64,000 nt of DNA from an uncultured virus (IMG/VR IMGVR_UViG_3300037840_000096) (lineage: Duplodnaviria > Heunggongvirae > Uroviricota > Caudoviricetes): the IMG/VR virus record IMGVR_UViG_3300037840_000096, one strand, 5' to 3'. Shown piece after piece: positions 1-63,286 of the stretch. The notes below the pieces were generated by a model. The model saw nothing but the letters and a program-made list of their open reading frames with translations. It was not told the origin of the DNA and made no database searches. Made by a program: the position numbers and the translations under genes. Each line of letters begins with the position of its first letter. Position 1 is the stretch's first letter.

Positions 1-333
1 GAGAACATAACCTCTCGCACCCTTCAGATTCAGGAGGTAGAGGAAGCTGAAGGCAAGATGTGGACACTCAAACGTAGGATCAAGTTAGGTGAGAAGGCTC
101 TGCTCCGAGGGGAGCGGTTAGCACAACTGAACCTGCAAATTGCGAACCTGGAACGAGTAATCCAACTGGAGAATGAACTATGTCAAAGAGCAAAGTCCCT
201 ATGCCTGAAGCAAGAGAAACTCCGAAAGTGGTTGGCGGAAACGTGCCCACTGTGCGGCAGGACGGGGAAGCAGTTGGCATCTTCCTGGCTGACATGCACC
301 TCTCCGAGATGCCCCCGGTGTCCCGCTGTGTAG
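1..333 (+). CDS. C-terminal end of an SbcC/Rad50-like N-terminal-half protein (coiled coil ending in a zinc hook); partial at window edge
   Basis: Frame open from base 1; coiled-coil-like sequence followed by CPLCG; lies directly upstream of, and overlaps, the SbcD-like gene. Confidence 0.6.
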   Translation, partial: ENITSRTLQIQEVEEAEGKMWTLKRRIKLGEKALLRGERLAQLNLQIANLERVIQLENELCQRAKSLCLKQEKLRKWLAETCPLCGRTGKQLASSWLTCTSPRCPRCPAV

Positions 334-1208
334 AGTCTGGAACTGGCTGGTTGAAGGTTCAGAAGGAGTACATGCTTCAGTTGGCTGCTATTCAGTTGGT
401 TCACAAGTGTCCTATCTTTATCGCTGGGGACATCTTCAACAAGTGGGACTGCACCCCTCACCTTCTGAGCCATGCGATCTCATGGTTCAAGGAACTCCGG
501 GATGTGTATGCTATCCCAGGCAACCATGACATACCCAACCATAACAGAATGGAGCTAGGAAGATCGGCATTTTGGGTACTCGTGGAAGCTGGAGTTATTA
601 CCCCTCTGAGCGGCCTGGCAGGAATTGGGCCTTTGGTGGTATACCCGTTTCCCTATGGTTCCAAGGTGGAGAAGAGAGTCCAGAGTAGAAAGGATCTCTG
701 TCTGCATGTGGCTTTGATCCATGACTACATCTGGACGGCTGACACCGGCCATCCCTTCGCAGATGAGGGTAAGCGGGTCAAGCACTGGTATTCCAGATTG
801 GAAGGATACGATGTGGCGTTCTATGGAGACAACCACATTCCGTTCTCTGTGACAAAGGAGGGAAAATGTACAATCGTGAATGCTGGATGCTTTATCAAGC
901 GATCAGCAGACGAGATCAGTTTGGAACCCCGCGTATGGCTGCTGTTCTCGGATGGCTTCGTTTCCTTCAAGAAACTAAACACCTCACAGGACAGGTTCCT
1001 GGAGGCCAAAGGCGAGAAGGTCATGATGGAAAAGGCCCTGGAAATCGACCTGGCAGAATTCACGAACGAACTCCTGAGGCTGAACTCCCAGAGGCTGGAC
1101 TTCTGCCGGACGGTCCTGAGTTGGATCGAGAGGGCTAACATACCAGAGGACGTAAAATCCTACATGCTCCGAGCCATAGGGACTTTGGGAAAGAGAGGGC
1201 CATTGTGA
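180..1208 (+). CDS. SbcD/Mre11-like metallophosphoesterase DNA nuclease
   Basis: Motifs LADMHL, AGDIF, PGNHD, GDNHIP, NAGC. Confidence 0.85.
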   Translation: MSKSKVPMPEARETPKVVGGNVPTVRQDGEAVGIFLADMHLSEMPPVSRCVESGTGWLKVQKEYMLQLAAIQLVHKCPIFIAGDIFNKWDCTPHLLSHAISWFKELRDVYAIPGNHDIPNHNRMELGRSAFWVLVEAGVITPLSGLAGIGPLVVYPFPYGSKVEKRVQSRKDLCLHVALIHDYIWTADTGHPFADEGKRVKHWYSRLEGYDVAFYGDNHIPFSVTKEGKCTIVNAGCFIKRSADEISLEPRVWLLFSDGFVSFKKLNTSQDRFLEAKGEKVMMEKALEIDLAEFTNELLRLNSQRLDFCRTVLSWIERANIPEDVKSYMLRAIGTLGKRGPL

Positions 1209-1432
1209 AACCTCCCACGGTCAGGGAAGTAGAATCCCTGAAAGCCGAAGTGGAGAGAGACAGGCACGAACTCTCCCGATTGGAAGGGGTGGTCCAGCAA
1301 CTGAAGGGAACCCAGAAGACCCTACAGCAGTTGAAAGAAGAGTTAGAGACTTTGGTCACCCAGCGGGATAAACTAGAACAGCAGTTTCGAGAGGCTCTGA
1401 AGAAGTACACAGAGGAGTACGATCATGAGTGA
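1205..1432 (+). CDS. Small coiled-coil protein
   Basis: Heptad-rich 75 aa; start overlaps the upstream stop. Confidence 0.6.
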   Translation: MKPPTVREVESLKAEVERDRHELSRLEGVVQQLKGTQKTLQQLKEELETLVTQRDKLEQQFREALKKYTEEYDHE

Positions 1433-1721
1433 GCAACCCCTGAAAGATCCCAACGAGTTGAGTCACAAGGACATGATGGCTGTTCTCCGCTCTTTGGGGA
1501 AAGCAGCGGAGATGTTCTTCGCTACTCACGGATACAATTGCCCGGCGCTTTGTATCATCGCAGAGCATGGCAACTACTTCCTAGAGGTGAACAACGTCGA
1601 GAAAGGAGAGAGCGAGGCTTTGCTGGGAATGAATCTGGAGAGGATAGGAAAGGCAATGCAGGGACTGGAAAAGTGCATAATAGTTCCCCCCAGGGAGGGA
1701 AAGCCTGATGAGATCCACTGA
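1425..1721 (+). CDS. Hypothetical protein
   Basis: Coupled ORF with GAGGAG upstream. Confidence 0.55.
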   Translation: MSEQPLKDPNELSHKDMMAVLRSLGKAAEMFFATHGYNCPALCIIAEHGNYFLEVNNVEKGESEALLGMNLERIGKAMQGLEKCIIVPPREGKPDEIH

Positions 1722-2307: not shown

Positions 2308-2646
2308 TTATGAATCTGTGCCAGTGTCGGAAGCTAACCCGCGTTGTGGTGGGAGGGCTAGAGTTCCTGAACCTGCGGTGTCCCCACTGCATCGACTCGA
2401 TCATCGAATCCAAGAACGAACTGGTCCGAGAGGTTGCCCGGTTGAAACCCCTGGCTGGTCCCTCTCAGATTCCCAAAGCCGACAACTCCCCACGAATGTA
2501 GAGAGTTTCGGACTACTCTACCAGTACCTACGCTACCGGGTAAAGAATTTTCGGATCATTCCTGGAAATTCTTTCCAGAGAGGTATACTACAGTCCACTG
2601 CTCCTTTCTAAGGCCCCTAGCCGGTCCTGCAAGACACTTTGACTGA

Positions 2647-3163: not shown

Positions 3164-4883
3164 CGGATGCCCTCACTAATCCTACCATAACAAAATAAGT
3201 TCCAGGTGCAAACGGACCAATGGTGGTGTTCAGTATTCTACCAGATACAGCCACCGAGTAGCTAGGTGGGTTCAGAGGATTAGGGACTACAACGTCTATC
3301 CAAATCAACCAGGAAGTAGCTGGGAACTGATCGGTATTCGCAGTGGGATACACACACTGCACGATGATGTTCCCTCCGGCCCTGGGATACAGCACAAGAT
3401 TCTGAGGGGCCGGGATCGGGGGTTCGTAGAGGCCCCCGGTGCTGTCTATCGTGATCGTGCTAATCGTAAACTGGTTCTGGCTCTGAAGCCCGTAGAGATC
3501 CTGTCTCCTAACCACCGCGTAGTAAGTCCACAAAGTCCCTATGGGTGGAGGAGTCAGGTTCACCGAGAAGGGCAAAGAGGCTGAGAACGCTGCCGGTGGT
3601 TGTGTGAGATCAGGAGGCCCGTTCAATCCCAGGTAAAGTAACCAGCCCTCTATTTGGTTCTGGACCCGGTAAGCTCCCACCTGAGAAGAGTTGATAATCA
3701 GAACTGCTACCTTGTAGCCACCTTCCTGAGAGGTGAAGATCCCAGAGGGGAGTGGTTGCAGTCTGAGTTGTTCGTAGTGCTGATAGTTCAGGTTCGGCAG
3801 ATCATCCCATCTCTGTGTTGTCTGGTGTGTAGGGGGAGGGGTAGGAAGCATCCCTTGTGGAATAGGCCAGTGCGTGAACTGCTCCCACCAGGAAGTAAGT
3901 ACCGACAGATCGTCCCATCTCTGAGAGGATTGTTGTGTTGGTGGTTTGGGTGGTATGAACCATTGAGCATAGGGACTTTGCTTGTAATTGCTCCACTCCT
4001 GCCAGTGATCGGGGAGGGTAACAATCACCTGGGAAAGCTGGTGTATCTCTGGCTGGCCAGGAACATAGCTAACCGGGATGGGTTGTAGTTTGAACTGCTC
4101 CCACCAGGAGTCCAGCACTGGCAGAGGAGTCTGGTCCTGGGAGGGTTGGCGAGTAGGAGGAGCGGGTGGTATGAACCACTGAGCATAGGGACTTTGCTTG
4201 TAGTTGCTCCACTCCTGCCAGTAATCCGATAGAGAGATCAGGACCTGGCTCGGCTGCGGATAAGGCACTGGTGCAGGAACCAAAGCCTTGACCGCTAGGG
4301 TGATAGCTCCCCACTGAGTAGAACCTCCCAACGCTGCTGTGTGACTACCCGTTGCTCCTTGTGCCTGGTTGGGTTTGTAGGCCACATCCAGGTTTATCAG
4401 GAGAGTGCCAATAGTTCCCAGATCCGTGAGAGCCCCGTCAGGTGTCATAGACTCCAGGACACCAGCAGTGCTAAAAGCACAGATCAGAAAGTCATTGGCT
4501 ACTGTGGTTGTGACACTGGATGCTGTAGCCGTGGTGCTGTTACCGGAGTTGGTGGTAGCTGCATCTGTAGAACTGGTGTCACTATTTTGGATGGCCAGAA
4601 CCCACACATCCGACTTGTCGATCATGCTAGTGTTGTTGAACGTCCAGGTAGACGGTTCACCACTGGCTGTTTTGGTGTATGCAGTTAGCGTTCCTCCGCT
4701 CCCGAGAGAGACAGACGCTGGAGAAGTCCACCCTGTAGGGTTTGCTGGCTTGCTGGTATTGCTGCACGTCTGGAAAGCAACCAGGCGATCCCCGTCTGCT
4801 GTGCCAGTTGGTTTGCTGACGCTGAACGTGGTTCCAGTCTGATCTGCCGTGGAAGAGGTAGATCGCAGGGATGGGTTTGGCAT
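3066..4883 (-). CDS. Putative tail/fibre structural protein with internal repeats
   Basis: S/T-rich beta-type N-domain, P/Q/W-rich repeat region, position in tail module. Confidence 0.55.
   Translation of the reverse strand: MPNPSLRSTSSTADQTGTTFSVSKPTGTADGDRLVAFQTCSNTSKPANPTGWTSPASVSLGSGGTLTAYTKTASGEPSTWTFNNTSMIDKSDVWVLAIQNSDTSSTDAATTNSGNSTTATASSVTTTVANDFLICAFSTAGVLESMTPDGALTDLGTIGTLLINLDVAYKPNQAQGATGSHTAALGGSTQWGAITLAVKALVPAPVPYPQPSQVLISLSDYWQEWSNYKQSPYAQWFIPPAPPTRQPSQDQTPLPVLDSWWEQFKLQPIPVSYVPGQPEIHQLSQVIVTLPDHWQEWSNYKQSPYAQWFIPPKPPTQQSSQRWDDLSVLTSWWEQFTHWPIPQGMLPTPPPTHQTTQRWDDLPNLNYQHYEQLRLQPLPSGIFTSQEGGYKVAVLIINSSQVGAYRVQNQIEGWLLYLGLNGPPDLTQPPAAFSASLPFSVNLTPPPIGTLWTYYAVVRRQDLYGLQSQNQFTISTITIDSTGGLYEPPIPAPQNLVLYPRAGGNIIVQCVYPTANTDQFPATSWLIWIDVVVPNPLNPPSYSVAVSGRILNTTIGPFAPGTYFVMVGLVRASDGALSSTIYSQVTIPQNPTEVTAVASGFQAIP
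3876..4222. repeat. Intragenic duplication with a 216-bp (72 aa) period
   Basis: 3948-4006 nearly identical to 4164-4222; 3876-3893 matches 4092-4109. Confidence 0.85.
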
Positions 4884-6427: not shown

Positions 6428-7860
6428 GATACCGTTCCCAGAACACCACTGATATCCGCTGCCGCTGCTCCGGTTCCTGCCGCTGCTGCCGAGAGCAGCA
6501 AGATGTTCGTGCCCGACAGCGTCAACCCTGTCAGTGTACCGTCGCTGGTGTACGTTGTCAGGGCGAATCCGAGGATGGTTGCACTACCACTCGGGTCGAA
6601 TCGCACCACAGCACGGCAGGTAGTGGAAGTAACCCGCTGGATGTACCCCGTGATACGCACCGTGCCAGCCGCGGCAAACGTCAAGGCGGTACTGTCGAAG
6701 ATTGTGATACCGCCAAAGGCCAGCTTGATCTCGCGGGTAGCCGTCGCACTGGAGACGATTGTCAGCGTGTAGTCGAAGGTGATCTTGTCACCGTTGATTG
6801 CCAGCGTATTCGCTACCGTCGTGTCGCTGTAGATCGTGTCGAAAGCACCACTGGTGCTGCTACTGCTGACGGTGGCGTAGTGGTCAGCGATACAACCACC
6901 AACATTCCCCAGACTGGCACCGGCGGAGGTTTGGAGTTGAATGAGGGGGGCGGTGCGGGAGGCTATCCCTTGAATTACGAGGACTTTTTCATTGGTATTA
7001 GCACTGTTCAGTTGAACAGACGCTACACTATCTGTAGTAGTGTTCGAGTTTACAGTTAATCTTGATGTAGCAGCTGCCACTGTTGTTGCAATACAAACAT
7101 GAACATTGCCACTGCCGTTGGTAATAGTCAGGGCATTAGAAGCTCCTTGTGCCACTGTAATCGGATTGCTCGTACTAGATGAATAGAAAAGCACACCAGC
7201 AGGAGAAATTAACGACAAATTGTACAAATTATCTACAAAAAACGGCAGCGTATTTATTGAGGTTCTTATCTCAAAAGCATTTCCAGTTGGAGTTGCTGCC
7301 AATTTCAGAACTAGCGGCGTGTGTCCGGCCGCCGACGCCGTGAACCTCCCCGCATACGAATTAGTCAGCGTGGCATTAGTCCCAGCAATAGGCGAAGACA
7401 CATCCAACGTCACTGCCGTCGTAACCATACTCGCCCCCACAAACGCCAGTGTCTGCGGCTTGATGACCATACCACGTTGGGTTGCAATCGCCCCCGTCGA
7501 GAACTGGCACGTCGCGGACAGATCGACCAGGTAGGGGATCGCCTCCGTGCCGGCGGTCAGGGTGGTGTGGGCACCGGCGGTGAGGGTAAAGGCGGTGGGG
7601 GAGCCAGTAGTGGCGATTCCCTGTGTAATGACGATTGGAGTTGTGGAAGTAGTCCAGACGTGCGACCCGGTCCAGGTCAGAGCCTGTCCTTCCAGCAAAG
7701 TTATATACTGACTGAAAGTAGCCCCATAGTTTACCCCACCCTGCACCACCTCTATCTCATCCGTAAAAAGAGCACTTACCAACGGGGAGTTGGTGATGAG
7801 GTAGCTAATCATCCCTGGCTGTGAAGGCATGCTAGTGCTCCAAGATCCGAGGTACTCCAC
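6409..7860 (-). CDS. Tail fibre/spike-like protein
   Basis: T/A/S/G-rich beta protein with an AT-rich central segment. Confidence 0.55.
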   Translation of the reverse strand: MEYLGSWSTSMPSQPGMISYLITNSPLVSALFTDEIEVVQGGVNYGATFSQYITLLEGQALTWTGSHVWTTSTTPIVITQGIATTGSPTAFTLTAGAHTTLTAGTEAIPYLVDLSATCQFSTGAIATQRGMVIKPQTLAFVGASMVTTAVTLDVSSPIAGTNATLTNSYAGRFTASAAGHTPLVLKLAATPTGNAFEIRTSINTLPFFVDNLYNLSLISPAGVLFYSSSTSNPITVAQGASNALTITNGSGNVHVCIATTVAAATSRLTVNSNTTTDSVASVQLNSANTNEKVLVIQGIASRTAPLIQLQTSAGASLGNVGGCIADHYATVSSSSTSGAFDTIYSDTTVANTLAINGDKITFDYTLTIVSSATATREIKLAFGGITIFDSTALTFAAAGTVRITGYIQRVTSTTCRAVVRFDPSGSATILGFALTTYTSDGTLTGLTLSGTNILLLSAAAAGTGAAAADISGVLGTVSCIPSS

Positions 7861-8371
7861 TCTCCAGGAGTCGAATCACGGTGGTTTCCAGACGCCTGTA
7901 ATGAGCAAACACAATAGAGACTTTGGCTGGCACCTGCCAGAACGGTTCCTGAAGTTGCACTGGGTTCTGCCAATGCTCCACCGGCGGCACAAACGCTGGG
8001 ACAATAGGAGTGTGTTGTACTGTCTGTTGCCTTACCTCCACTTCTAACATTCCAAACTGCTGCTGGACTAAAGGAGGAGAGACAAACACGGGAAGAATAG
8101 GAATAGTTCTTCTGGGCTGCTGATCGAACCTTGGCTCCTCTGGAGTGTATCTCTTCTCCCGTACTAAAATGTACTCCTTCCAGATGTACTCGTAGGGGGG
8201 TACATGGATCAGTGGATAGTACAGCCAGTCATCCGCTGCTGGCCATGCACTGCGGTACTTGGACTCGTGTACCTTGGAGGGGATGAAGGGAATAGGCGAC
8301 AGTGGTGCGTAGGGTGTGTTCCCAACCCACGTCACCTGCCTGTTTGTAATTCCCTGCCAGGAGACAGCCAC
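7832..8371 (-). CDS. Hypothetical proline-rich protein
   Basis: Coupled ORF in the operon. Confidence 0.45.
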   Translation of the reverse strand: MAVSWQGITNRQVTWVGNTPYAPLSPIPFIPSKVHESKYRSAWPAADDWLYYPLIHVPPYEYIWKEYILVREKRYTPEEPRFDQQPRRTIPILPVFVSPPLVQQQFGMLEVEVRQQTVQHTPIVPAFVPPVEHWQNPVQLQEPFWQVPAKVSIVFAHYRRLETTVIRLLESGVPRILEH

Positions 8372-8373
8372 CC

Positions 8374-8823
8374 CTACCTCACGAATTGAGTTTCGCCAGA
8401 CCGCATGTTGTGAATGAGGGAGATCATCCCCTCCCGGTCGTACTGGAACTTGATCCCCTTGTCCATTTCGAAGTGACTGTCCTGAGCCACCTTTCTAAGA
8501 GCCCTGGCGACCAATAAGAACGCCTCCAAGGTGGTGAAGGTGAGCCTGTCTGTGTGGTCAAAGACAAGAGCCACCAGACCCTTGTGGTGGCTGAGTCTAA
8601 CCTGGGCCTGCTCTCTGGAGATGAGAGCAAAGTCCCTATGGGCTGTGAACTCTTTGGCCACATCTTTGACCACCTGCTCCATTGTCTTCGCGAGGTTGAA
8701 CGCATCCTCCCAATGAGTGATACAATAGTCACACTTCCGATCCAGAACCAGGAGCAAAGCCTTCGGCCTGTCCTGCACCTCTATCTGGAAGGTGACATTC
8801 TCGCCAAGGATCTTGCCAGGCAT
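8374..8823 (-). CDS. Hypothetical protein
   Basis: ATG with AGGAG upstream. Confidence 0.55.
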   Translation of the reverse strand: MPGKILGENVTFQIEVQDRPKALLLVLDRKCDYCITHWEDAFNLAKTMEQVVKDVAKEFTAHRDFALISREQAQVRLSHHKGLVALVFDHTDRLTFTTLEAFLLVARALRKVAQDSHFEMDKGIKFQYDREGMISLIHNMRSGETQFVR

Positions 8824-8843
8824 GACAATCTCCTACTTAGGAG

Positions 8844-9320
8844 CTACGCCATTTCCTCTATTACCAGATCCGCAGTGATGGTGACCGAGGACCCTGGAGC
8901 CACTGGAAGTTTGAGGCCGATGATGCTGGCCGCGTCCACGAAGATGTACTCTTTGGGAGTTGGCAGAAAGAGCCAGCCGTTCAGATAGTTGAACACGTCC
9001 TGGCGGATGATGTTGGAGTCCGTACCCTCTGCACTGGCGTTGGTTCCTGTAGCAGCGGTTCCTCCCACGGCCGAAGCGGCTGGGTCCGTGGTAGGACCGT
9101 TCTTGAGTGGGGTGAAGCTAGTGACCGTGGCTGCACCAGACTTGCGGTTGATCTGCACCGGCTGTTGGGTGCTGGTCGTAGAGGAGGTCTGACCGATGAC
9201 ACCTCTCACGATCTGGAGAGGTACGGTAGCCCCCGCCACAACCTGAATGAGGGTGATGCCCACGGTGACGGCGACCCGTGTCATGGAAATTGTATATATT
9301 CGAGATGCAGGTGCTGCCAT
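8844..9320 (-). CDS. Hypothetical virion protein
   Basis: T/A/V-rich; AGGAG RBS. Confidence 0.55.
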   Translation of the reverse strand: MAAPASRIYTISMTRVAVTVGITLIQVVAGATVPLQIVRGVIGQTSSTTSTQQPVQINRKSGAATVTSFTPLKNGPTTDPAASAVGGTAATGTNASAEGTDSNIIRQDVFNYLNGWLFLPTPKEYIFVDAASIIGLKLPVAPGSSVTITADLVIEEMA

Positions 9321-33805: not shown

Positions 33806-33915
33806 TGGGTCACCCCGAACATGACCAGAAGGAAGATGAATCCTGCGATGCCACACACTAGCACCGCAGCGATACATCCCCATAGGGTCCAGACTGTACC
33901 TACGTCGTTCATCGC

Positions 33916-34401: not shown

Positions 34402-34532
34402 GATGTCTTCCTCACCATAGGGACTTTGGACGAAGGATCTGTTCCTCTACCCACTCAGCCACCCGTCTCGTCGCCAGGTCGTAAGTTTCCGCTGATGGCG
34501 AGGAGAAACCCCGATGGCTAATCGGAATCTGC

Positions 34533-34787
34533 CTAGGGCCGGCGAAACATAGCGGGGGGCGTACCCCCGGACGCCACCCAGGCAGCGATATCGGTCTGGA
34601 GTTGCTGGGCTGCCGTGTTAGCAGTACCAGTGGCTGCCGTTACAGCCGTATCGGCGTTTGTCTTGGCGGTTTGAGCGGTAGCGAGAGTGGTAGCGGCTGT
34701 GGCGGCAGTGGCTACTGCTTGCTGCTCGGCAGTGACAGCAGCGTCCAGAGCAGCGAGATCGGCGGTGACGTTTGCAGGAATGGCCAT
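34533..34787 (-). CDS. Ala/Thr-rich coiled-coil protein
   Basis: AGGAGG RBS. Confidence 0.55.
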   Translation of the reverse strand: MAIPANVTADLAALDAAVTAEQQAVATAATAATTLATAQTAKTNADTAVTAATGTANTAAQQLQTDIAAWVASGGTPPAMFRRP

Positions 34788-34877
34788 GACAATCCTCCTG
34801 GGGTGAAGGGGCTGGGGACTTTGTGTTACTCTACCCAGAGAATTTCCTACTGTCAATCCCAACAATGTCGGGAACCC

Positions 34878-36713: not shown

Positions 36714-37006
36714 AGTCAGGGTCCTCTACAACCTTCCGAGGCATGTAGGCGACAATGTAACCATGTAGAATCGTAGCAGATCCCTCAGGATGGCCATAGG
36801 CTACAAGTGACAGGTGGAAGGGTTTGCCCGTTTCGTCTGTGCTCTCCACCCTGAGAAGAACCGGAACCCACTCCACGCCATCAGGAGTTGTTATCTGCTT
36901 CACCAGTTCCATTGCCTTCCTCCCAAACCACGGGAGCAACGGTCCAGGACTCTTCTGGAATGATCTCCACCGTCCTCCAGGAAACGTCCTCCCGGTCGTA
37001 CATAGT

Positions 37007-38458
37007 TTACTTCCTCGCTGGAATAGCCCCCACCACCAGTTGCGGCTTCGTAAGCTGTGCGACTGCTCCAGAGGAGGAGTCCACCTGATCCTTGTATTTG
37101 CTCCTGGGAAAGAACTTGAGTTCGTGAACAAAGTCCCTATTCCAGTGAGCGGTCACCAGGATCACATTTCCGATGTTGACGTGCTGGGAGAACACGTCTG
37201 CTCTTAGCTCTTTGTCCCCGGACACCTTGTCAGCCTTGCAGCGGAATCCCTTCAGGGAGAGCCTCTTTATGGTTGCCTCTGCTGATTCTACGCCAGAAGA
37301 GGCCGGCTCCTGTTCCACCCAGACGATAGTCTCCTTTCCGTCTGCTTTGGCCGTATCCAGGATGAGTTGCTCCCTGTCAGCGGAATTCCACTGACCCCGG
37401 ATCACATCGGTGACCCAGACCTGATCCAGTTCATCCATAGCGACTTTGGTTCCTACGGTAAAGCAGGCCCCCTTCTTCGTAGAGATGGCCTTGTCCCAAT
37501 ACCTGACCGGCCCCTTCTTCCACTTTCTCTTGCCTGAAGGCATGGGAGCGTATCGGAGTTTGTCTGTCTTAAATGTCCCACCGCCTCGTGGGATTGGCTG
37601 GTTTCCGTACTGGCAAGCGTATCCCACCTCCCGTAGGGTGTCCAGAGCCTCTTCCAGAGCGGGTATGGGAAGTCTGACCGGGTCCAAAAGGCCATCCTGG
37701 TAGAAGTCTTTTAGCTCTGGTGGTTTGATTTCCCAGGTAGTGTCGCAGGGAATCACAAAGTGCTTGATTCGTCTCTTGCTCTCCAGAGCCTCCCCTGTTG
37801 GGTCCCACTCGTGTAACCTTTGCATGATGAGGACTGTGGGAGTCAGAGTGAGACGGATCTTTCGTCTGGAGAGGGTTTCTGTCATCCAGGAGTTAGCTTC
37901 AGCCAGGATAAGATCCGAAAGAGCACCTTGAGGATCAATAGGATCATCCACACTGATAAAATGAGCGTGCATGCCAATGACACTGCCACCCACACCCACC
38001 GCGTAACGCATTCCTCCGAAGGTGTTGGTGAAGTATCCTTTGGTGTTTTGGTCTTCACGAAGTTGGATCTCCGGGTACATCTCTTTGTACTTGTCACAGA
38101 GCACGATATCTCTGGACTTTCGAGAATGATCCAGGGCAAGGCGTTCAGAGTAAGAACCTGAGATGAATCTCGCAGAAGGCATCCGGGTCCAGATCCAGGG
38201 TTGCCAGAGGATAGAGACTATGGAGGATTTGGATGTGCCGGGAGGGCAGTTCCAGATCAGGTCGTACTCCTTATCCTTGTCATCAAACACTCTCTCCGAG
38301 ATCACCTGGAGTTCATCACACAGCTTCCTGATATACCAACTGGCCACCAGCTTCTCAGCTGAAGCCAGTGACCAGAAGGTGAGGAAGAACTGGTAGTAGC
38401 TCTCCCGGCAATACTCTGCCTGGAACTTTGTAACAGAAGCCTTGCTCTTGAGCACCAT
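37007..38458 (-). CDS. Terminase large subunit
   Basis: Walker A PPGTSKS, Walker B SVDDP, MQRLHE, RYWD, KDQVDS. Confidence 0.92.
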   Translation of the reverse strand: MVLKSKASVTKFQAEYCRESYYQFFLTFWSLASAEKLVASWYIRKLCDELQVISERVFDDKDKEYDLIWNCPPGTSKSSIVSILWQPWIWTRMPSARFISGSYSERLALDHSRKSRDIVLCDKYKEMYPEIQLREDQNTKGYFTNTFGGMRYAVGVGGSVIGMHAHFISVDDPIDPQGALSDLILAEANSWMTETLSRRKIRLTLTPTVLIMQRLHEWDPTGEALESKRRIKHFVIPCDTTWEIKPPELKDFYQDGLLDPVRLPIPALEEALDTLREVGYACQYGNQPIPRGGGTFKTDKLRYAPMPSGKRKWKKGPVRYWDKAISTKKGACFTVGTKVAMDELDQVWVTDVIRGQWNSADREQLILDTAKADGKETIVWVEQEPASSGVESAEATIKRLSLKGFRCKADKVSGDKELRADVFSQHVNIGNVILVTAHWNRDFVHELKFFPRSKYKDQVDSSSGAVAQLTKPQLVVGAIPARK

Positions 38459-38809
38459 GAGAGTTACGCCGCCTGGAGTCCTGCCAATCCCAGGACTCCA
38501 GAGGGCTTCCTGGGATTCAAGTCTTGCAGTTCTTCCTGGAAGAAGATGTGACCACCACCATGCTCTAGCTGCACGGCGAAGGTCCCGTCCAGGAAATCGT
38601 ACACAATCCTACCCCGCCCAAGCGGGGTGAGGACATTCGGAGCCAGTGGGATCGCCTTTTCTCTTTCGTACATGGTTGCTTCTCCGCTGGGGGTGACGAA
38701 CGCAGAAGATAGTCTGGAATTCTGCCCATACACGAGCAAAGTCCCTATCGTCAGTATAGACACAAAATCCTGGGAAATGTTCCCCAGGTGCGTGATTTTC
38801 TTGAGAATT

Positions 38810-39172
38810 TCACGTCCGTTCCTGAGTGCTATGGGTCTGGTTGGGGAGAAAACCACCTCCGGTATCAGATGCGGCGTATTCCTGTTTCACCACAAAGAGT
38901 TCCCCTTCTGCCAGGGTGATCTCGATTCTCCTGGTCTTGAGTCCCCACATTATCCCTGCTCGTTTGCAAAACGCCTGGAACTCTGGCCAGTGATAGACGG
39001 AGTAACCATCCGCTGCCACAGGATGGCTCATAAGCTCCTCCACCCTCTCCTCCAAGGTGCCAGCCTTCTCCTCCAGAAGTTTGTCTGCCAGGGCGTAGGC
39101 AGCCAGCATATCCCCAGCCAGGACCGCCAGAGCCATGCTCTTGCCAATATCCAGTTCATGTTTGCTTGGCAT
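38810..39172 (-). CDS. Hypothetical protein
   Basis: Coupled ORF between the terminase genes. Confidence 0.45.
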   Translation of the reverse strand: MPSKHELDIGKSMALAVLAGDMLAAYALADKLLEEKAGTLEERVEELMSHPVAADGYSVYHWPEFQAFCKRAGIMWGLKTRRIEITLAEGELFVVKQEYAASDTGGGFLPNQTHSTQERT

Positions 39173-40043
39173 GATCTAGTACCACCTTTCCCGCTACTTC
39201 CTGGATTTCCAGTTCCAGGCGTTCCTGTACAGTTAGGCGTTTGGGAAGAACCTTGTCCAGTTCCTTCTCCTCCACCGAACGTATGGCCCCCATGACTTCG
39301 GCCTTGCAGGTTTCCGACAGCAATGGTAGAATCTGCACCAGATCGAAAACACCGTGGAGAACCCGACCTTGTACATTTACGTCCAATTTGCTGTGCGGAG
39401 CGTATCCCCTCTCAGCATTGTACGTCTTGTTGGCGAAGAGAACCGCCGCAGTATCCCCCTGGGAAATCAGGTTCACCAGGGCTTCCTCGAAAAAGTTACC
39501 CTTGTGCCAATCCATTTCGGTGATGAGTTCCGCAAAACCCAGATCCGTAGCAATCCAGCGGTCCAGTTCCTGTTTGCTAACGTTCACCTTTCGCAGTGCC
39601 TGGGATTGGGAAAAGTTGCAGGAGCACAGTGCGTACAGGAAAAGCTGCTGCCGGACATGCTTTCCCTCCTCCTGGAGCATAAGTTCTATCTTTTTCACTC
39701 CCCCGTCCTGCTTCTCCCAGGTGTTGATCTTCTTCCAGAGTTTCTGGAGTTCCGGGGACAGCCTGGAGTAAACCCAATCCTGGAACGTTTCTGTGCCTTC
39801 CCGTTCCTTTCTCGCCATCTCCAGCACGGTGATGATCTCGGGATGCTCCCTTTTCCATGCCACCAGCGTTTCCGGCCGGATGGGTGGTTTTAGATTCCTG
39901 GCAATCTCCTTCTCCGTAAGGCCCACCTTGGCCATCTTGTAGATGTGGACCAGCATGAGCGGAGCCCACTTCCGCTTATAGTTTCTGGTGTCCACAGGTT
40001 TCCTGGGACCAACCCTTCCGTCTTTTTTCTTTTTCTCTGTCAT
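39156..40043 (-). CDS. Putative terminase small subunit (HTH)
   Basis: GLTEKEIA...TL.AWK..HPE; GDTAAVLF..K...RGY; upstream of TerL. Confidence 0.65.
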   Translation of the reverse strand: MTEKKKKDGRVGPRKPVDTRNYKRKWAPLMLVHIYKMAKVGLTEKEIARNLKPPIRPETLVAWKREHPEIITVLEMARKEREGTETFQDWVYSRLSPELQKLWKKINTWEKQDGGVKKIELMLQEEGKHVRQQLFLYALCSCNFSQSQALRKVNVSKQELDRWIATDLGFAELITEMDWHKGNFFEEALVNLISQGDTAAVLFANKTYNAERGYAPHSKLDVNVQGRVLHGVFDLVQILPLLSETCKAEVMGAIRSVEEKELDKVLPKRLTVQERLELEIQEVAGKVVLDHAKQT

Positions 40044-40083
40044 AACCCTTCTCCCTCCTTCGTAGTATCCCACCATAGAGACT

Positions 40084-40416
40084 TTGCTCATACTTCGCAA
40101 TGCCGGGAACCCTATAGGAGTGACAATCATGTCCTGGCAACCAGACGGCGAATGGAAACGGGTGGAGAAGCCCCTCACCCCAGCAGCACTGTACACAGCA
40201 CTCTCCTACGCAACAGAGGCAGCGTACCAAGACCAACTTGCTCGCTTTATCTCCATGATTCACCCAGAGGACATCCTGACGGAGGTTTCAGAAGGCAACA
40301 ACAACGGAGTCACGAACTACTACCTGGGAATAGGAACACGACTCTCTCCCAACGGCACAACCAGAATCCCCAACGGAGTGAGCTACCGGCTAGTGATCTC
40401 TGCGTGGATGAGTTAA
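40084..40416 (+). CDS. Hypothetical protein on the opposite strand (start probably 40129)
   Basis: AGGAG before ATG; fills the gap between - strand genes. Confidence 0.45.
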   Translation: MLILRNAGNPIGVTIMSWQPDGEWKRVEKPLTPAALYTALSYATEAAYQDQLARFISMIHPEDILTEVSEGNNNGVTNYYLGIGTRLSPNGTTRIPNGVSYRLVISAWMS

Positions 40417-41087
40417 CCCTGGGAAGGGAGAAAGTAGGGCCGGATATGGGCCAGGTAGTCCTGGTTTCCAAGTTGCTCCTCCTCTATCAAGTCCAGCAGA
40501 GCATAAAGCTGAACCGGGTCCTGGGATTCTAAAAACGCCTTCCACATAGCTCCCACCGCCGGAGTCTTGCTAATCTCCAGAATCTGCTCCTGGAGATAGT
40601 AAACCTGTTTCCACTCCATCCTCGCCGTGGCCCCTTTCCCTCTAACCAGTGCAACCTCCCATAGGGACTTTGCCCCCAGAGACAACTTCACCTCTACAGC
40701 CAGTTCCAGTGAAGCCTGGGATTTATTGGCAAAGAATTCCCGAGTCCACCAGTTCTGAAAATCCACGATGTTCCAGCCATGATTCTCACATGCTGCTACC
40801 CAATCCTCCCAGAAGGCCCTGCAAGCAGAAACAGTGGGAATACTCTCAGTACCACGCCAAAGAGTATAAATCAGGGGATGAGCAACCCAATACACAAAAG
40901 TCCGACCACCTTCTCTTGGACTGAACCCAGGCTGTATATCCCACGGGGCATCTGGCTCCCCATAACCCAGCCTCTGCCCTCCGGCCTGTAACTCCTGGGA
41001 AAGAGCTACCAGACCTTCTCTCTCCAGTACCGGAACCAATCCGTACCTAAAAGTGCATTTCCACGCTGCTAACGCTTGCTGTGCCAT
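40413..41087 (-). CDS. Hypothetical protein, paralog of 45172-45762
   Basis: Shared GL.AL, P..Y, DF..WW, EL..V.LS, .LD..E/D pattern. Confidence 0.55.
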   Translation of the reverse strand: MAQQALAAWKCTFRYGLVPVLEREGLVALSQELQAGGQRLGYGEPDAPWDIQPGFSPREGGRTFVYWVAHPLIYTLWRGTESIPTVSACRAFWEDWVAACENHGWNIVDFQNWWTREFFANKSQASLELAVEVKLSLGAKSLWEVALVRGKGATARMEWKQVYYLQEQILEISKTPAVGAMWKAFLESQDPVQLYALLDLIEEEQLGNQDYLAHIRPYFLPSQG

Positions 41088-41890
41088 GTTCCTCTCCCAT
41101 CGTACCAGGGCTGCTACTATAGTACGCGAGTGCTGGTTTTCTAGCTATTCCACCCACCTCTCTATACTTCTGTACAGGCCAAAGTCCCTATGGTCCTAGA
41201 CCTATATTTCTAGGAAATTTTTATTCACCTGATGTCGTTTCTAAGAAAACCTAGAAATACCAGATTTTTACAAATCTCATTCACTTGATGTCAGTCCAAA
41301 GTCCCTATGGTAAAGTGCCAGTAGATACCAAAAATTCTAAATTCTCATTCAGTTGGTGGCGGACCCCTCTCCCCCCGCTCAGCACCACTGGCCTACCAAC
41401 GCAACCGGGTGGGGACCCCACGGCTAGGTATATACCTGCTATACCCTCTGAAAGTGGCTATACATCACGCACGCGATCACGCAAGGACTCTGTACACTCT
41501 CTGTACAGCGTTTTCTAGCGTATACAGGCTAACAACCCCTGTTTTCACTGCTAAACAGCCTGTATGGTAGTTGTACAGCGATTGTGCAACTTCTGTACAC
41601 AACAGGTCAATACTACCCGATATGATGGGGTGAACAGCATTTTGTGCCAAATAGTTGTAACTCCAATAGGCACTTTGCTTTATGGTGTGGAGGATGTGGA
41701 TTACTATGTACAATACTCATGACCTACAACCATTTGGCATGAGGGATGCTATAGAGAGATTTCGCCACGGACGGCACGGGGGAAACGTTCTCCCGGACAC
41801 GCCAGGGAAAGGCAGAACCAGATAGATCAGGTGGGCCGGACAGGTGTACTCTCCGGCCGGATAGATCAGGTGGGCACACGGGAAGAGGAT
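41088..41890. promoter_or_regulatory. AT-rich divergence region between late (-) and early (+) blocks
   Basis: No convincing ORF; strand switch; repeated TGTACA; two motif copies. Confidence 0.55.
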
Positions 41891-43634: not shown

Positions 43635-44922
43635 CCTATCCCGTTCCCTGCCCTTCACCACACTAGCGTTGTTGCTAGTGTGGTTGTGTTGTAACCACCC
43701 GAAAGTCCGGGTGGTTATTCGCGTTTCCCCTCTGGAGGATTCTCTCATGACGAAGCACCAGCTAGCCAGCATGCTGTTCAGCGTATCCCCATCCTCTCCG
43801 GTCACAGTCAAGGGAGTGACGGGGTATCTTCGCAGTGTCTCCCGCGAGGATGGGTCTGGTTCGTCCTTCATAGTGTCTCTCTTCACCCAGGACGGCAAAT
43901 CTGTATCCGTCCATGTTCGGACAGTGGACTAACCCCGCACTATCGCCCATGTACCCCTCTGGAGCAAAGCCCCTATGTGCCTGTTCTTGGCTGATGTGTC
44001 TGTTCTGATTCTGGTGACCATCCTGGCAGCGGGGGCAATTGCCGTCGCTTGCGATGTGTTCCATCTCAGTACCGAATGGCGATAGCTATGTGTGAGTGCA
44101 TCTGCCTGTTCTTCGTCGTGGATCTTGTGATTCTGCTGGTGGTCGCCTATCTTCGGAGGTGAATCCTCATGTCCTGGCATCGAGATTCCAACTGCTACTC
44201 CGTGTTCTGGGTGGACAGTACGGGTGGGTTTTCGTGCTGGCCTACGGGCATGCACGAAAACCAGCGTACCCCTATCTGGAGTCTGTTCAGCGGAGGAGAT
44301 TACATCTGCTCCGGGCCTCTCAGTACCTGTTTTCAAGAAGCGGAATCCATTCTAAATGGGTTGGACGGCATGGAAACATCCCTGCCCGGACTTACTCTGG
44401 CTGGCTGAGTGCCTGACCATAGGGACTTTGCTCTGTCCTGGAATCCAAATCCAGGAGCAAAGTCCCTATGGTGAATTGCCCTAACCTGAATCCAAATCAG
44501 GACTTAGGGAAATAGTCAAGATTCTGCACCCCAGAGCGTATATCTCTGTAGGGTGAATCTGCAAGGGAAAACCGTGTGGAGTTCCCTTGGTAAGTGTAAG
44601 ATCCACACAAAGCGAAAACTGGAGGCAAGATGATACTTGATTTTCATCGTGTTTGTACCGGGCCGGGGTGAGCCCGGAAACGGAAAGTTTGGCCAGATAG
44701 CAGATACCCCAACCCCTTACCCCCATGCAACGGGTTGGCCTTTTCTCCTATCACCGGCGAATTCTTTCCCGTACCTTGCCAATCAGGTAGGATTGGCAAA
44801 CCGGATTCTGCGTGCGAACTCTCGCGATGCTACCTTTCTCTCTACTGATTGTCCGGCCGGCAATCCCCAGAGAAACAGGACCAGCACCCGAAAGAGAACA
44901 ACGGAAAGCAGAATCCACTTCT

Positions 44923-44977
44923 GGGCCGGACTTCCGGTGAAGTCAGCATGCTAGGGGTTCGACTCCCCTCCGGTCCA
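44923..44977 (+). ncRNA. Short tRNA-like structure (Ala-type acceptor stem plus T-arm, no anticodon arm)
   Basis: GGGCCGG/CCGGTCC-A stem with G3:U70; AGGGG-TTCGACT-CCCCT T-arm. Confidence 0.6.
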
Positions 44978-45171
44978 TTTACCCGACCAAAGTCCCTATC
45001 GCCCTGGGAGATTAGCTGTGCTTCCCCGCATCGTCGCCGTGTACGTTCTGCTCCTGCTCTCCCTGCTGGGATGTGCATGTTTTATCATGACATGGCATCC
45101 CCTGGCAGGAGCAGGGTGTCTGATCTGTTCCGCACTCGCTCTGTTCCTCTCAGAGGAAAGGAGGTGAATCC

Positions 45172-46640: not shown

Positions 46641-47156
46641 GTGCAGTGGGCAGGTACATCCCATCCAGCAGAGAGGTCCGACTCCTCTCCGGTCCATTTG
46701 CCCAAAGTCCCTATGGAAAGCAACAGCATGAAGAGTGAACAAGAACCCCAGAGTCTCCTGGAGAAGGCTCCTGCCCCACCAGAGGGCAGTCCATTCAGGC
46801 TCCAGAAACTGGAGTACATCTCCGTACCCCATCCTTACTGTCTCACCCCAAAGCATGTGGAGGTGGCAGCAGACCACCACGGAGGCATTCTGGATCATGA
46901 TGCGATCCTGGACGTGGAGAGGAGGGGGGCCAGGTGTGGGATCGGCAGGCATGGCAGTCCTATCGGGGGAGAATCCCCCTGCAACCTGCCTTACGACCAA
47001 CACGAACACCTACTCACCCTGTTCGTGGAGATGGACGATAACACCCACATCTCCACCACACCCGGCCTGCACCCGTACCTCCTGGCTCTGAAACAGTGGA
47101 GTCAGGAAGAGAAAGCGGAAGTGGAGGGATTCTGCTTCCCGCAGAAGGGTGAGTGA
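46641..47156 (+). CDS. Hypothetical protein
   Basis: VPHPYC.TPKHV; true start downstream of the track start. Confidence 0.5.
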   Translation: MQWAGTSHPAERSDSSPVHLPKVPMESNSMKSEQEPQSLLEKAPAPPEGSPFRLQKLEYISVPHPYCLTPKHVEVAADHHGGILDHDAILDVERRGARCGIGRHGSPIGGESPCNLPYDQHEHLLTLFVEMDDNTHISTTPGLHPYLLALKQWSQEEKAEVEGFCFPQKGE

Positions 47157-47407
47157 GAAAGCAAAGTCCCTATGGTCAGAGGTGCTAAAGTGAGCCATTA
47201 CGACAGGTCAGAAACCATCCCAGCGCCAAAAGTCCCGAAGATCCCTGGGATGTGTGATTGGTGCGGAAGAAGGAAAGCCCTCATCCGCGTGAAAAGCGTG
47301 GATTTTCAGATGTGCAAGCAGGGCTGGAAGTGGGACCTTTGTGGTCCCTGTCTGGCCAGACAGACGGAGGCGGTGGAGAGAACCGAGTTGTTCCTGGGAG
47401 TGGAAAC

Positions 47408-47989
47408 ATGACAGAATTCGAAAAGTGGCTCCTGGGAAACTCACCAGTCCTAACCCGTCTTGATCTCCTCCAGCAGTGGAGGGCCAGGCAAAGGGCTATC
47501 TCGGAGTTCTCGTTCGCCATCCTGAACGAGAAAACCGTAAAGACCCTCCTGCCTTATGGCCCGTTCCTGGAGGTAGGGGCAGGAACGGGGTATTGGGCCT
47601 GGGAACTGTCCCAGGCAGGAGCAGACATCATAGCGGTGGACCCTCACCCCTATAAGGGCATTGCCTACAAAGCCTCCAGGACGTGGGGTATTGTCCTTCC
47701 CATGACCGCAGAGGAAGCCATCTGGAGATACATCTCCTTCCTGGAGCCTCGCACACTTCTTATGGTGTGGCCATCCTACAACGAGGATTGGCCCGCTCAG
47801 ACCCTGGAGAAGTTCCAGGAGGCAGGGGGGCAGAGGCTCATCTACGTCGGGGAGGGATCTGGAGGATGCACGGCAAACGACAGGTTCCATTCGCTCCTGG
47901 AGGAGAGCTGGGAATCTGTGGATTCTTTATCTATCCCACAGTGGCAGGGGCTCCACGACTACATAGAGGTATTCAGGAGAAAAACATGA
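47408..47989 (+). CDS. Class I SAM-dependent methyltransferase-like protein
   Basis: LEVGAGTGYWA, IIAVD, LMVWP, YVGEG.GGCTA. Confidence 0.7.
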   Translation: MTEFEKWLLGNSPVLTRLDLLQQWRARQRAISEFSFAILNEKTVKTLLPYGPFLEVGAGTGYWAWELSQAGADIIAVDPHPYKGIAYKASRTWGIVLPMTAEEAIWRYISFLEPRTLLMVWPSYNEDWPAQTLEKFQEAGGQRLIYVGEGSGGCTANDRFHSLLEESWESVDSLSIPQWQGLHDYIEVFRRKT

Positions 47990-53909: not shown

Positions 53910-54356
53910 GTGTCTGAGCAAGAGGCCATCCTGGGTGTACAGGGCATGCTGCATTCACTTGCAGCATCGTTCTCCCGCACCTATGGCCTGGATGCTCAGG
54001 AGTTGTTCCAGGAGGTTCAGATTCCTGCCCTCCTCGCCATCCGAAAGTGGCAGGAGGGTAAGGGGACGAAGCTCTCCACCTACGTCTACCTCTGCGTGAA
54101 GAGGTGGTTGATATCCAAAGGCAGGCGAAAACAACACAAGATGGAGCAGATTCCCATAGGGACTTTGCCTGCCCGGAGCTTCTCCCTGCGTAGGTTGTTC
54201 ACGGATCTAAACACTGATCTTGCCAAGATTGCTGTGAGGCTTGCCCTGGCCGGGCTGTCGCAGCGGGAGATCATAAAAAGCCTCCAGGAGGACTTTGCTC
54301 TGGAGGTAGAGGAAATCGGCCAGGTGTTCCGAGAAGTAAGAGAGGCTCTATCATGA
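53910..54356 (+). CDS. Sigma-70-like factor (compact)
   Basis: ELFQE...ALLAIRKW...KG.KLSTY (region 2-like); C-terminal GLSQREI. Confidence 0.6.
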   Translation: MSEQEAILGVQGMLHSLAASFSRTYGLDAQELFQEVQIPALLAIRKWQEGKGTKLSTYVYLCVKRWLISKGRRKQHKMEQIPIGTLPARSFSLRRLFTDLNTDLAKIAVRLALAGLSQREIIKSLQEDFALEVEEIGQVFREVREALS

Positions 54357-61798: not shown

Positions 61799-62670
61799 AA
61801 GGGGATGAGAATGGCTTTTCGTGAGTTCAAAGAATCCCAGGAGGGAGGAGGTAACTCCGTTGGGGATTTCAAAAACGCAGCCAACAGTCAAGCGAAGAGA
61901 AGGCGTTTGGTCAGTGTGGCTACATACTACAATCCCGATCACTCCATTCACGGGAGGATTTGTATTCGTGCAGTCCACGCCGACGCCAATCCAGTCCTCA
62001 CCCTGCATACCGCAGCGGCCCTGGAGGTGGTGAAGGGCATCCTGGAGAACCTCCCAGACTCTGTGATTCTGGACGAGGAACTCCAGAGGATTATCAGCGA
62101 AAGGATCGGGAGGGCCTCTGGAGTGCAAGAAACCCAAAGCGAATCGGAGGGATCGTGACCACACCGCAGAAACTGAGAATTCTGAAGCAGGAAGCCACTC
62201 TGTTCCGGGACGGCAAAGTCCCTATCTACCTGATGCCCGATGGCAGGTTTGCCTGCTGCTGGGGAGGGAAATGGCTGGTCAGGGCCAGCGTAAAGTCGCT
62301 GGAGAAACACACCAACGCTCACAGACCCTTCGTGAAGTTGATGTGTGTCGCAGAGAACTTTCCTTCCTATCAGGACATGGCTCCCGTGGTGATGGAAGTC
62401 TCTGACATGCAGCAGTCCTACGTTTTCGACAAGGAGGGGAAACGCCGGACCCGGCATTCTGGGTGCTGGACGAGGTACGATTCTGAGTTGTATGCTCAAG
62501 CTCTGGCTCTGGAGAAGAAACGCTTGAAATACCAGGAAGAACTCCAGGCAGAGTACGAAAAGATCCGGGAAGCTGTCAGAGGGAGGAGGATCTATCCTTC
62601 TTCTTTCAAGGATCTCCTGGAGAAGGAAGAGGAAGAAGAGGAGTAGTTTCGCCCGACAGGAGAGCAATGG

Positions 62671-63183
62671 ATGTTCGACAAGGAGGTTCCGCTGTGGCAG
62701 TTGATTTCGAGGCTCTGGAGATATGGCAACATGGCAGACAAGCAAGCAACTCGGACGTGGTTCGGGCTCAGAGGGCCTATCACAAGAGAACTGGCTCTCG
62801 GAGCCAGCCAGCACCTTCGGGATCTTCTCCCAGAGGACTTCCCGCAGATCGTGACCCTCTGTGGGTCCACGAAGTTCAAGGAAGAGTTCATTCAGATGAA
62901 CTTTGAACTCACGATGGCGGGACGCATCGTAATCTCTGTGGGGTGGTTCTCTCACGTTGATGGCAGGATTTACACTCCCACGGAGGAAGAGAAAAAAAAG
63001 CTGGACGAGCTTCACCTGCGTAAGATTGACCTGAGCGATGCAATCTTCGTAGTGTCCAGGGATGGATACATCGGAGAAAGCACCACCAGGGAGATCGAGT
63101 ACGCTCTCAAGACGGGCAAAACCGTCTGGTGGATGGAGAAAACAGCAGAAGAGAAGTTCATGAATCGCTCCCTTTCACAGTGA
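62671..63183 (+). CDS. Nucleoside-deoxyribosyltransferase-like fold protein
   Basis: IVTLCGSTKF, HLRKIDLSDAIFVV..DGYIGEST..EIEYA. Confidence 0.6.
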   Translation: MFDKEVPLWQLISRLWRYGNMADKQATRTWFGLRGPITRELALGASQHLRDLLPEDFPQIVTLCGSTKFKEEFIQMNFELTMAGRIVISVGWFSHVDGRIYTPTEEEKKKLDELHLRKIDLSDAIFVVSRDGYIGESTTREIEYALKTGKTVWWMEKTAEEKFMNRSLSQ

Positions 63184-63286
63184 AAGGCGAGCAAAGTCCC
63201 TATAGTCCCAGCGATGCTGGGAGCCCTATGGACTTGGCTTCTGACCAACAGCAGGGATAGTCGCCTACAACAGCGAGAGGTGCAAG

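Follow-up and report, generated by a model that had tools for sequence, protein, structure and literature searches.

What reads a word of 12 bases that a virus repeats about once per kb along its whole chromosome? The question is raised by IMG/VR record IMGVR_UViG_3300037840_000096, an uncultured virus of the Caudoviricetes, of which a stretch of 64,000 nt, one strand, was analysed (this whole stretch is referred to as the window). In an initial annotation of this DNA, the repeated word was noticed and interpreted as a protein-binding or self-marking lattice that covers the whole phage chromosome. In the reading that is favoured here, tentatively and with somewhat less than even confidence, the copies are docking or loading sites for P0121, an orphan ParB-family protein of the phage, which would coat, condense, or mark the viral chromosome.

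The word CAAAGTCHCTAT has exactly 63 matches in the window, 34 on the plus strand and 29 on the minus strand, where the initial annotation had counted about 63. All 34 plus-strand starts given there are exact. The minus-strand sites are right as well, but each left end was placed one base too low (e.g., the first copy begins at 1176, not at 1175). Overlooked were three copies in which position 8 is a G (10258+, 16816+, and 37437-), and the eight one-mismatch copies that had been named were all recovered within one base. With any base allowed at position 8, the word is written CAAAGTCNCTAT and has 66 copies in the window (36 plus, 30 minus), spread on both strands from position 191 to 63203. 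After 100 dinucleotide-preserving shuffles, CAAAGTCHCTAT was present in 0.02 copies on average and in one copy at most, which reproduces the chance expectation of about 0.02 copies that had been estimated before. Markov models of order 1–4, trained on the window itself, predicted no more than 0.05 copies of each word variant. The 12-base word is by a wide margin the most over-represented word of the sequence in k-mer analysis.

When a 14-base extension of the word was used as query, two IMG/VR contigs with several matches were found. The first is 100% identical to window positions 33897-40742. The second is 100% identical to the last 2,479 and the first 2,782 bases of the window, bridged by 12,852 more bases. 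Because this contig joins both ends of the window, the genome is a circle of about 76,852 bp or a circular permutation. The DNA of the phage was also present in contigs of two soil-metagenome runs, and the occurrence of the same sequence, 100% identical, in two independent IMG/VR contigs and in contigs of these runs rules out an artefact. The 12.85 kb outside the window hold 11 further copies of the word, so the earlier description of a whole-chromosome lattice stands, and the complete genome has 77 copies (44 plus, 33 minus).

Over these 77 copies, the eighth base is C in 45, T in 25, A in four, and G in three. There is a weak preference in the flanks for G, A, and G/C on the 5' side and for G and G/C on the 3' side, and the extended 17-base consensus, G-A-[G/C]-CAAAGTC[C/T]CTAT-G-[G/C], has no dyad symmetry; the word is asymmetric. 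Outside the variable position, one-mismatch copies number 16 genome-wide, and six of them have A instead of T at the last base. A decaying repeat would be expected to give the opposite ratio to the one found, 77 exact copies against 16 with one mismatch. Two copies form an inverted pair in non-coding DNA (44416..44472, both strands), in which two perfectly inverted arms of 18 nt are separated by 21 nt. Two other copies on the minus strand (3969-3980 and 4185-4196) sit in an internal duplication of the gene for a 605-amino acid (aa) protein; they have near-identical flanks of more than 30 bases and both code for ...KQSPYAQ.... At least one copy of the word thus arose from duplication and not from point selection.

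With the strands pooled, the gaps between copies average 998 bp and reach at most 3,122 bp, with a coefficient of variation (CV) of 0.65. For randomly placed copies the CV is about 0.99, and the observed value was reached in none of 20,000 uniform simulations and in none of 10,000 gene-aware simulations that kept the split between coding and non-coding DNA. In the spacing test, which had been suggested with the initial annotation, the pooled copies are therefore more evenly spaced than by chance. On single strands, the CV is 0.92 and 0.81, and when the strand labels were shuffled for comparison, no added evenness was seen (P 0.92 and 0.52, respectively). The order of strands along the genome is random, with 38 runs versus 38.7 expected in a runs test. 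As it is the union of both strands alone that is evenly spaced, the reader appears to be one of duplex DNA, indifferent to direction, and this spacing argues against primase, Chi-like, or transcription readers. The one-mismatch copies tend to fall in the larger gaps; the mean gap that hosts such a copy is 1,829 bp, versus 1,421 bp for random points (P = 0.015).

Wholly inside called genes are 42 of the 66 window copies, 24 in sense and 18 in antisense orientation. They are distributed over frames 0, 1, and 2 as 6, 5, and 13 in sense and as 15, 3, and 0 in antisense, i.e., all five open frames are occupied, and the empty antisense frame would read a stop codon. The other 24 copies, intergenic or at gene boundaries, also lie in both orientations when read by eye. 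When the copies of the whole genome are assigned to transcription blocks, 46 run in sense and 31 in antisense orientation, in agreement with the 3:2 ratio that is expected if one antisense frame is a stop (binomial P = 1.0; P = 0.11 against 1:1), and the earlier statement that orientation does not follow transcription holds. The density of the word is 0.80 per kb in coding DNA and 2.04 per kb in non-coding and boundary DNA. Minor codons are used for it inside genes, as the word contains 10% of the ATA and 7% of the CTA codons of the genome.

Several other kinds of signal were considered and rejected. A repeat at the protein level is rejected by the use of five different frames. As a translation-start signal (GAG, a 10-nt spacer, and ATG), the word was rejected because 21 of 50 word-linked ATGs open an open reading frame (ORF) of at least 50 codons, versus 38% of all ATGs; a few copies (11325, 33084, and 50814) do coincide with real starts. 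Neither a tRNA nor a known RNA was recognised, with 0 genes in ARAGORN and 0 matches in Rfam at gathering thresholds. A small sigma-70 region-2 protein of the phage was rejected as the reader, the orientation and placement of the word being unlike those of promoters. It is thus supported that the word is a DNA-level signal, and not a protein, RNA, promoter, or translation-start signal. The initial view of a DNA-level lattice over the whole genome gains support from the use of frames, the presence of both orientations, and the small number of near-miss copies.

The carrier of the lattice is a tailed phage. Its window ORFs include a tape-measure protein, portal, large terminase (TerL), capsid-type proteins, and an SNF2 helicase, furthermore a DnaG-like primase, a DnaB-like helicase, SbcCD-like proteins, and two ParB-like proteins. 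The genes are arranged in a minus-strand block at about 2.6-41.1 kb and a plus-strand block. Encoded on the bridging part of the second contig are a split family-A DNA polymerase, a clamp loader, a UvsX-like recombinase, ThyX, a dCTP deaminase, and GroES. The ORFs that were scanned against Pfam gave no match to an integrase, repressor, or ParA family, in a search that might miss weak or novel homologues. The phage looks lytic, with its own replication machinery.

The candidate reader, P0121, is a protein of 444 aa. The 5' part of its gene lies at the end of the window (63287..64000, plus strand), and the gene continues past it (L112:1766-3100). Its family is tiny, with 68 representatives at E ≤0.001 among 1.84 billion proteins in a full HMMER search. 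A word-indexed search with P0121 gave no matches, and no sequence homologue was found in 50,697 cultured-phage records. Across 36 aligned family members, N35/Q38/R40, G140/R143, and E186/N187/R190 are invariant, three groups of residues that we take to be boxes I–III of the ParB nucleotide-binding domain. After these groups come a helix-turn-helix, a linker of poor order, and, at the C-terminus, a domain whose tail is rich in lysine. The confident AlphaFold2 model of the protein (mean predicted local distance difference test score, pLDDT, 86) has a ParB fold. Noc, ParB-CDP, Spo0J, and KorB were its best matches in the PDB, with E values from 4e-6 to 1.5e-4; these matches cover the nucleotide-binding and DNA-binding domains at an identity of only 14-22%. 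Against the Noc profile model P0121 scored 18 bits, where the cut-off is 315. No ParA-type ATPase was matched among the ORFs scanned, and the ParA-binding motif as described in the available part of a published survey (PMC12704722) was not seen by eye in P0121; with neither of them, P0121 is an orphan ParB. A copy of the word (63192..63203, plus strand) precedes the start codon of P0121 by 84 nt, in the orientation of the gene, and is a possible autoregulatory site.

The TerL of the phage belongs to a large family of phages of about 70-80 kb, and closer TerL proteins (62-69% identical) occur on contigs of 75-79 kb. Compared were 80 IMG/VR loci around TerL relatives, 80 metagenome loci among the matches listed, and 77 IMG/VR loci, of which 74 had not been among the others, from a scan with protein P0010. 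The single-protein scans of IMG/VR did not lead to the 75-79-kb contigs; the scan just named gave loci of at most 54% identity, and another gave one distant locus. The window's own word was never present beyond one chance copy in the 80 IMG/VR loci. Three contigs carry versions of their own. On L236 (5.1 kb, TerL 59% identical), the word is AAAGACTCTA in four copies, and on L316 (5.7 kb, TerL 61% identical) it has the core AAACGCCYTA in four exact copies and in five with a shorter form. The third, G408 (14.2 kb), has a syntenic replication block and words of the GGAAGACTCTAY type, 12 copies of an 8-base core and nine of an 11-base form. All three words are dispersed over both strands at about 0.8-0.9 per kb and are a few letters away from the word of the window. 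When the G408 version was searched for elsewhere, G408 alone had several matches among the best 80 of 117 listed.

More distant relatives, the complete genomes G409-G412 (73-80 kb, three of them with direct terminal repeats), lack a lattice of this kind; the 10-mers that rank highest in them have at most 15 copies, on one strand, and are start-associated or terminal. The scan of related phages that had been proposed thus had two outcomes, with distinct versions of the word in three contigs and no lattice in four complete distant relatives. Lattices across the wider TerL family are not supported, as the top words there mostly form arrays, either in tandem or in terminal repeats, or are start-associated and confined to one strand.

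In the genomes that could be scored, P0121 goes together with the lattice. Apart from the phage itself, G408 alone among IMG/VR contigs encodes a full-length P0121 homologue, and on it a copy of its own version of the word lies about 21 nt upstream of the ParB-like gene, on the same strand as the gene. In the 14-kb block shared with G408, seven of the eight substantial shared proteins (SNF2 helicase, primase, DnaB-like helicase, a 338-aa protein, both polymerase parts, and clamp loader) have orthologues in G409-G412. The ParB-like protein is the exception, with an orthologue in G408 and none in the four distant relatives. A P0121-type protein is therefore present in both testable lattice genomes and in none of four lattice-free genomes. 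The region of the recognition helix is strongly different between P0121 and the ParB-like protein of G408, as are the words. This co-occurrence is suggestive, not decisive. With it, the earlier protein-binding interpretation can be attached to a definite candidate, the orphan ParB-family protein P0121; the idea of a planctomycete host is not supported (see below).

In three of the four distant relatives (G409, G411, and G412), a weak match to P0121 was observed, restricted to its last ~75 residues. In G409 it lies in a different, shorter protein next to the helicase gene (G409:C1:36133-36783, minus strand), in the corresponding stretch of the genome, and after the match that protein has a lysine-rich stretch and, judged by eye, a winged-helix-like end. 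It suggests that DNA-binding heads have been swapped on a common adaptor domain.

If P0121 is the reader, the word would be a site specified by the phage and read on double-stranded DNA in either direction, and selection would keep about one copy per kb along the entire chromosome. The helix-turn-helix of P0121 would recognise each copy, and the protein would then switch, in the manner of ParB, Noc, and KorB, to a nucleotide-bound clamp able to spread outward or to link sites with one another. Given a loading site every kb or so, the whole phage chromosome, and nothing else, would become coated or condensed. In related phages, slightly different words together with diverged recognition helices would let each lineage mark its own DNA. 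The coat may serve nuclease protection, organisation of the DNA for replication or packaging, or global silencing. In a more far-reaching version, which is speculative and on balance doubtful, the nucleotide switch of an orphan ParB-type protein would serve a lytic phage to mark its entire genome as self; the mark would shield the DNA from translocating host nucleases or gather it for replication or packaging, and would tell own DNA from that of co-infecting relatives.

Several points weigh against P0121 as the reader. The co-occurrence rests on two genomes with both features and four with neither; L236 and L316 are too short to be scored for the presence of P0121. About 60 of the ~97 phage ORFs are likewise without BLASTP matches in the four distant relatives, and beyond the 14 kb of G408 many other lineage-specific genes could encode the reader. 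The words of the relatives were chosen as top k-mers, so that their shuffle statistics are post hoc, and the independent point for them is their likeness to the window's word. The characterised sites of ParB, Noc, and KorB are palindromes bound by dimers, whereas the word of the window has no dyad, and we know of no characterised ParB-family site that shares its asymmetry. The binding of the word by P0121 is an inference, and a host-encoded reader is conceivable. Finally, ParB-fold proteins of phages can instead activate DNA-modifying enzymes, according to the available part of PMC13229309.

The last point leads to a first alternative, in which the word is marked covalently. A phage enzyme, perhaps directed or switched on by the ParB-fold proteins, would modify a base or place a site-specific nick there, and the result would be a chemical pattern and not a coat. 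Genes for a methyltransferase-like protein, a GNAT enzyme, and a DUF6551 ParB-fold protein all lie within 47.2-51.4 kb, and site-specific nicks occur in T5 and some Pseudomonas phages. Phage ParB homologues are reported to activate thymine dioxygenases in pathways that co-occur with methyltransferases and GNAT enzymes (PMC13229309, available part). The same part of that source describes the dioxygenase-associated ParBs as lacking a DNA-binding domain, which P0121 has, and gives known modification contexts of 2-3 bases, not 12. Among the ORFs scanned, there was no match to TET/JBP, glycosyltransferase, DNA methyltransferase, or nickase families, and the enrichment of a modification target site would need an added benefit. 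The S-adenosylmethionine (SAM)-methyltransferase-like protein itself (47258..47989, plus strand) has weak matches below curated cut-offs, except for phrog_19090, a group of unknown function. A covalent mark is regarded as unlikely.

Rather unlikely, too, is the same docking-site logic with another phage reader, which could be P0122, a small terminase subunit, or one of the many unannotated lineage-specific proteins. P0122 (48664..49581, plus strand) is the second ParB/Srx-fold protein of the phage, with a DUF6551 domain (PF20188, E 2e-7) and a match to a ParB-like PHROG, and it is a candidate alternative reader or partner of P0121; phage fusions of the ParB fold with DUF6551 bind ATP, as stated in the available part of Kaljevic 2025 (PMC12704722). 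P0122, the methyltransferase-like protein, and candidate small-terminase ORFs that adjoin TerL are all among the ~60 ORFs with no match in lattice-free relatives. These genes fall outside the 14 kb that G408 covers. An asymmetric word would suit a protein that binds as a monomer, like the Cluster A repressor (PMC9283540, available part). On the other side, no demonstrated sequence-specific DNA-binding domain was found in these candidates in family scans, and P0121 is the only shared protein of the testable block that tracks the lattice.

The host as the source of the word, copied by the phage either as an uptake-sequence-like self marker or as the site of a host DNA-binding protein, with different hosts behind the versions of the relatives, is quite improbable. 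The length of the word, its asymmetry, the density of about one per kb, both strands, even spacing, the inverted pair, and the "dialects" of relatives do resemble uptake sequences. No enriched genome was seen among those searched, however. In 401 sampled Planctomycetota genomes, the word had at most 10 copies per genome, like the reversed-pattern control, which leaves the planctomycete host suggested earlier unsupported. Five assorted soil-type genomes had it at chance level, and the genome-contig collection gave scattered single matches among the at least 121 listed. With the phage GroES as a clue to the host, only viral clusters were matched. A spread of the host word by recombination is unlikely for a lytic-looking phage with its own replication machinery, and a phage-encoded candidate reader exists. 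In one Planctomycetota genome (G291:C1:3803340-3808051), CAAAGTCTCTAT is present three times on one strand, about 2.3 kb apart; these copies are probably inside a tandemly repeated gene and are not a genome-wide signal.

Very unlikely is a start or control site of phage DNA metabolism that is read on one strand, such as a primase recognition site in lagging-strand synthesis or a Chi-like signal for phage recombination nucleases. The phage does encode a DnaG-like primase, a DnaB-like helicase, a UvsX-like recombinase, and SbcCD-like proteins, and a spacing of about 1 kb is about the size of Okazaki fragments. But single-strand readers predict evenness on each strand, the four relatives without a lattice have kept the primase, the helicase, and the nucleases, and the known primase and Chi words have 3-8 bases.

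Least probable of all is a transcription signal, either stoperator-like sites of an elongation-blocking repressor or promoters for a sigma-like factor: Cluster A stoperators are 13-bp, asymmetric, and genome-wide, with versions that vary with the repressor between related phages (PMC6550527, available part), the phage encodes a sigma-70 region-2 protein, and the word is 2.5-fold denser outside coding sequence, but stoperators face mostly one way relative to transcription (same part of PMC6550527) where codon constraint suffices for the mixture found here, the copies between genes and at their boundaries face both ways, the ATG after the word opens a long ORF about as in all ATGs (21 of 50 versus 38%), and neither integrase nor repressor was matched in the ORF scans.

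Some further features were observed in the genome and its relatives. The sigma-70 region-2 protein (53910..54356, plus strand; PF04542, E 1.5e-8, above cut-off) has 148 aa and consists of region 2 only; it may be a sigma factor for the phage's own promoters. The divergent control region between the gene blocks (window 41088-41700) has several TGTACA-centred palindromes of the CTGTACAG type and short direct repeats. These may be operator sites, unrelated to the 12-base word. At 44922-44984 and 46672-46703, there are two mini-tRNA-like elements, 88% similar, with an acceptor-like stem and a perfect T-arm. A copy of the word lies directly 3' of each, and their tRNA-like matches in Rfam were only sub-threshold (E 0.3-0.5). 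The split polymerase (L112:5098-6393 and 7604-9001; genome 66.6-70.5 kb) is represented by a protein with uracil-DNA glycosylase (UDG)-like and 3'-5' exonuclease parts and by a separate polymerase protein. Three small ORFs lie between them, one of which is the dCTP deaminase, and the split is kept in all relatives compared. In a TerL relative on a 13,684-bp contig (L237 and L317 are the same contig), CCCAAAGAA is present nine times and the 8-mer CCAAAGAA 15 times, 14 of them on one strand, at very regular intervals (CV 0.34); it may be a strand-specific lattice of another kind. The early-gene clusters of G410 (22.3-31.2 kb) and G412 (23.7-33.4 kb) have an extended ribosome-binding-site word before nearly every small gene, AAGGGAAAG... 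or AGGAGAACA... followed by ATG, and these words are start-associated sequences.

If P0121 does read the word, orphan phage ParBs would gain a function, the coating or marking of a whole viral chromosome, and the coding cost paid for keeping 77 identical words would be explained. The protein and its sites are short and defined, so the idea is directly testable at the bench. Orphan proteins of the ParB-CTPase fold are common on phages and mobile elements and were surveyed in 2025, mostly without a known role in the available part of that survey (PMC12704722). Dispersed repeats of phages were known before in Cluster O and Cluster A mycobacteriophages, and a purpose is known for the stoperators alone. 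In the literature searched (subscription journals being outside its scope), no prior description was found of a lattice that is asymmetric and evenly spaced and is linked with a phage ParB. The present case contributes an asymmetric word, the quantitative signature of about one copy per kb, even two-strand spacing, free orientation, and few near-misses, the related versions of the word in related phages, and a specific candidate reader of the ParB-CTPase family.

Among known systems, the uptake sequences of Neisseriaceae and Pasteurellaceae are asymmetric words of 10-12 bases that occur about once per kb, evenly on both strands and in "dialects". The word shares with them its density, its presence on both strands and inside and between genes, and its even spacing. 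Unlike these, which are chromosomal, belong to competent bacteria, and are read by a host pilus protein, it is found on a phage that has replication genes of its own, with no enriched bacterial genome among those searched. From polar signals of the Chi and KOPS type it differs in its 44 plus and 33 minus copies, in the random order of strands, and in having no evenness per strand. In ParABS systems, too, the ParB-family protein combines a nucleotide-binding N-domain with a helix-turn-helix, but their parS sites are few, palindromic, and clustered near an origin, whereas here 77 asymmetric copies are dispersed and no ParA was matched. The distinction from stoperators, Chi/KOPS, and parS that had been drawn in the initial annotation is thus borne out by the free orientation, the mixture of strands, the asymmetry, and the dispersal.

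Closer in protein architecture are KorB and Noc, both among the top structural matches of P0121, ParB-CTPase-fold proteins with a helix-turn-helix that load at many sites over a replicon and act at a distance as sliding clamps, and Noc is likewise an orphan without ParA. Their sites are palindromic and far sparser, about a dozen on RK2 for KorB and tens on the 4-Mb Bacillus chromosome for Noc, and P0121 shares only the fold with them, at the low identity given above. KorB has been described as a multi-site sliding clamp on plasmid RK2 (PMC11790492, available part). The stoperators of Cluster A are also asymmetric (13 bp versus 12 bp here) and present in dozens per genome, and there the versions track the phage's own DNA-binding protein (PMC6550527, available part). 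They differ in that the word is free in orientation and more densely spaced, and in that the ORF scans gave neither a repressor nor an integrase, while stoperator phages are temperate with an immunity repressor; a strict match to a characterised repressor/stoperator system, the case that would have removed the novelty, was thus not found.

The lattice is closest to the unexplained repeats of Cluster O mycobacteriophages, Corndog and its relatives. A 17-bp dyad repeat is present there in 34 copies in the ~70-kb siphovirus genome of Corndog, invariant, within and between genes, and absent from the host genome, and a role in transcription was judged unlikely (PMC4351075, available part). According to the same part of this source, the Cluster O phages are not obviously temperate, have no integrase and no parAB, and encode an orphan ParB-like protein, which its authors counted as one of three candidate DNA binders without a link to the repeat being drawn there. 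In contrast to the Cluster O repeat, which is a dyad at about half the density, the word described here is asymmetric, occurs evenly spaced about once per kb, and differs between relatives. Common to both is an invariant short repeat throughout the genome of a non-temperate siphovirus that is not tied to promoters.

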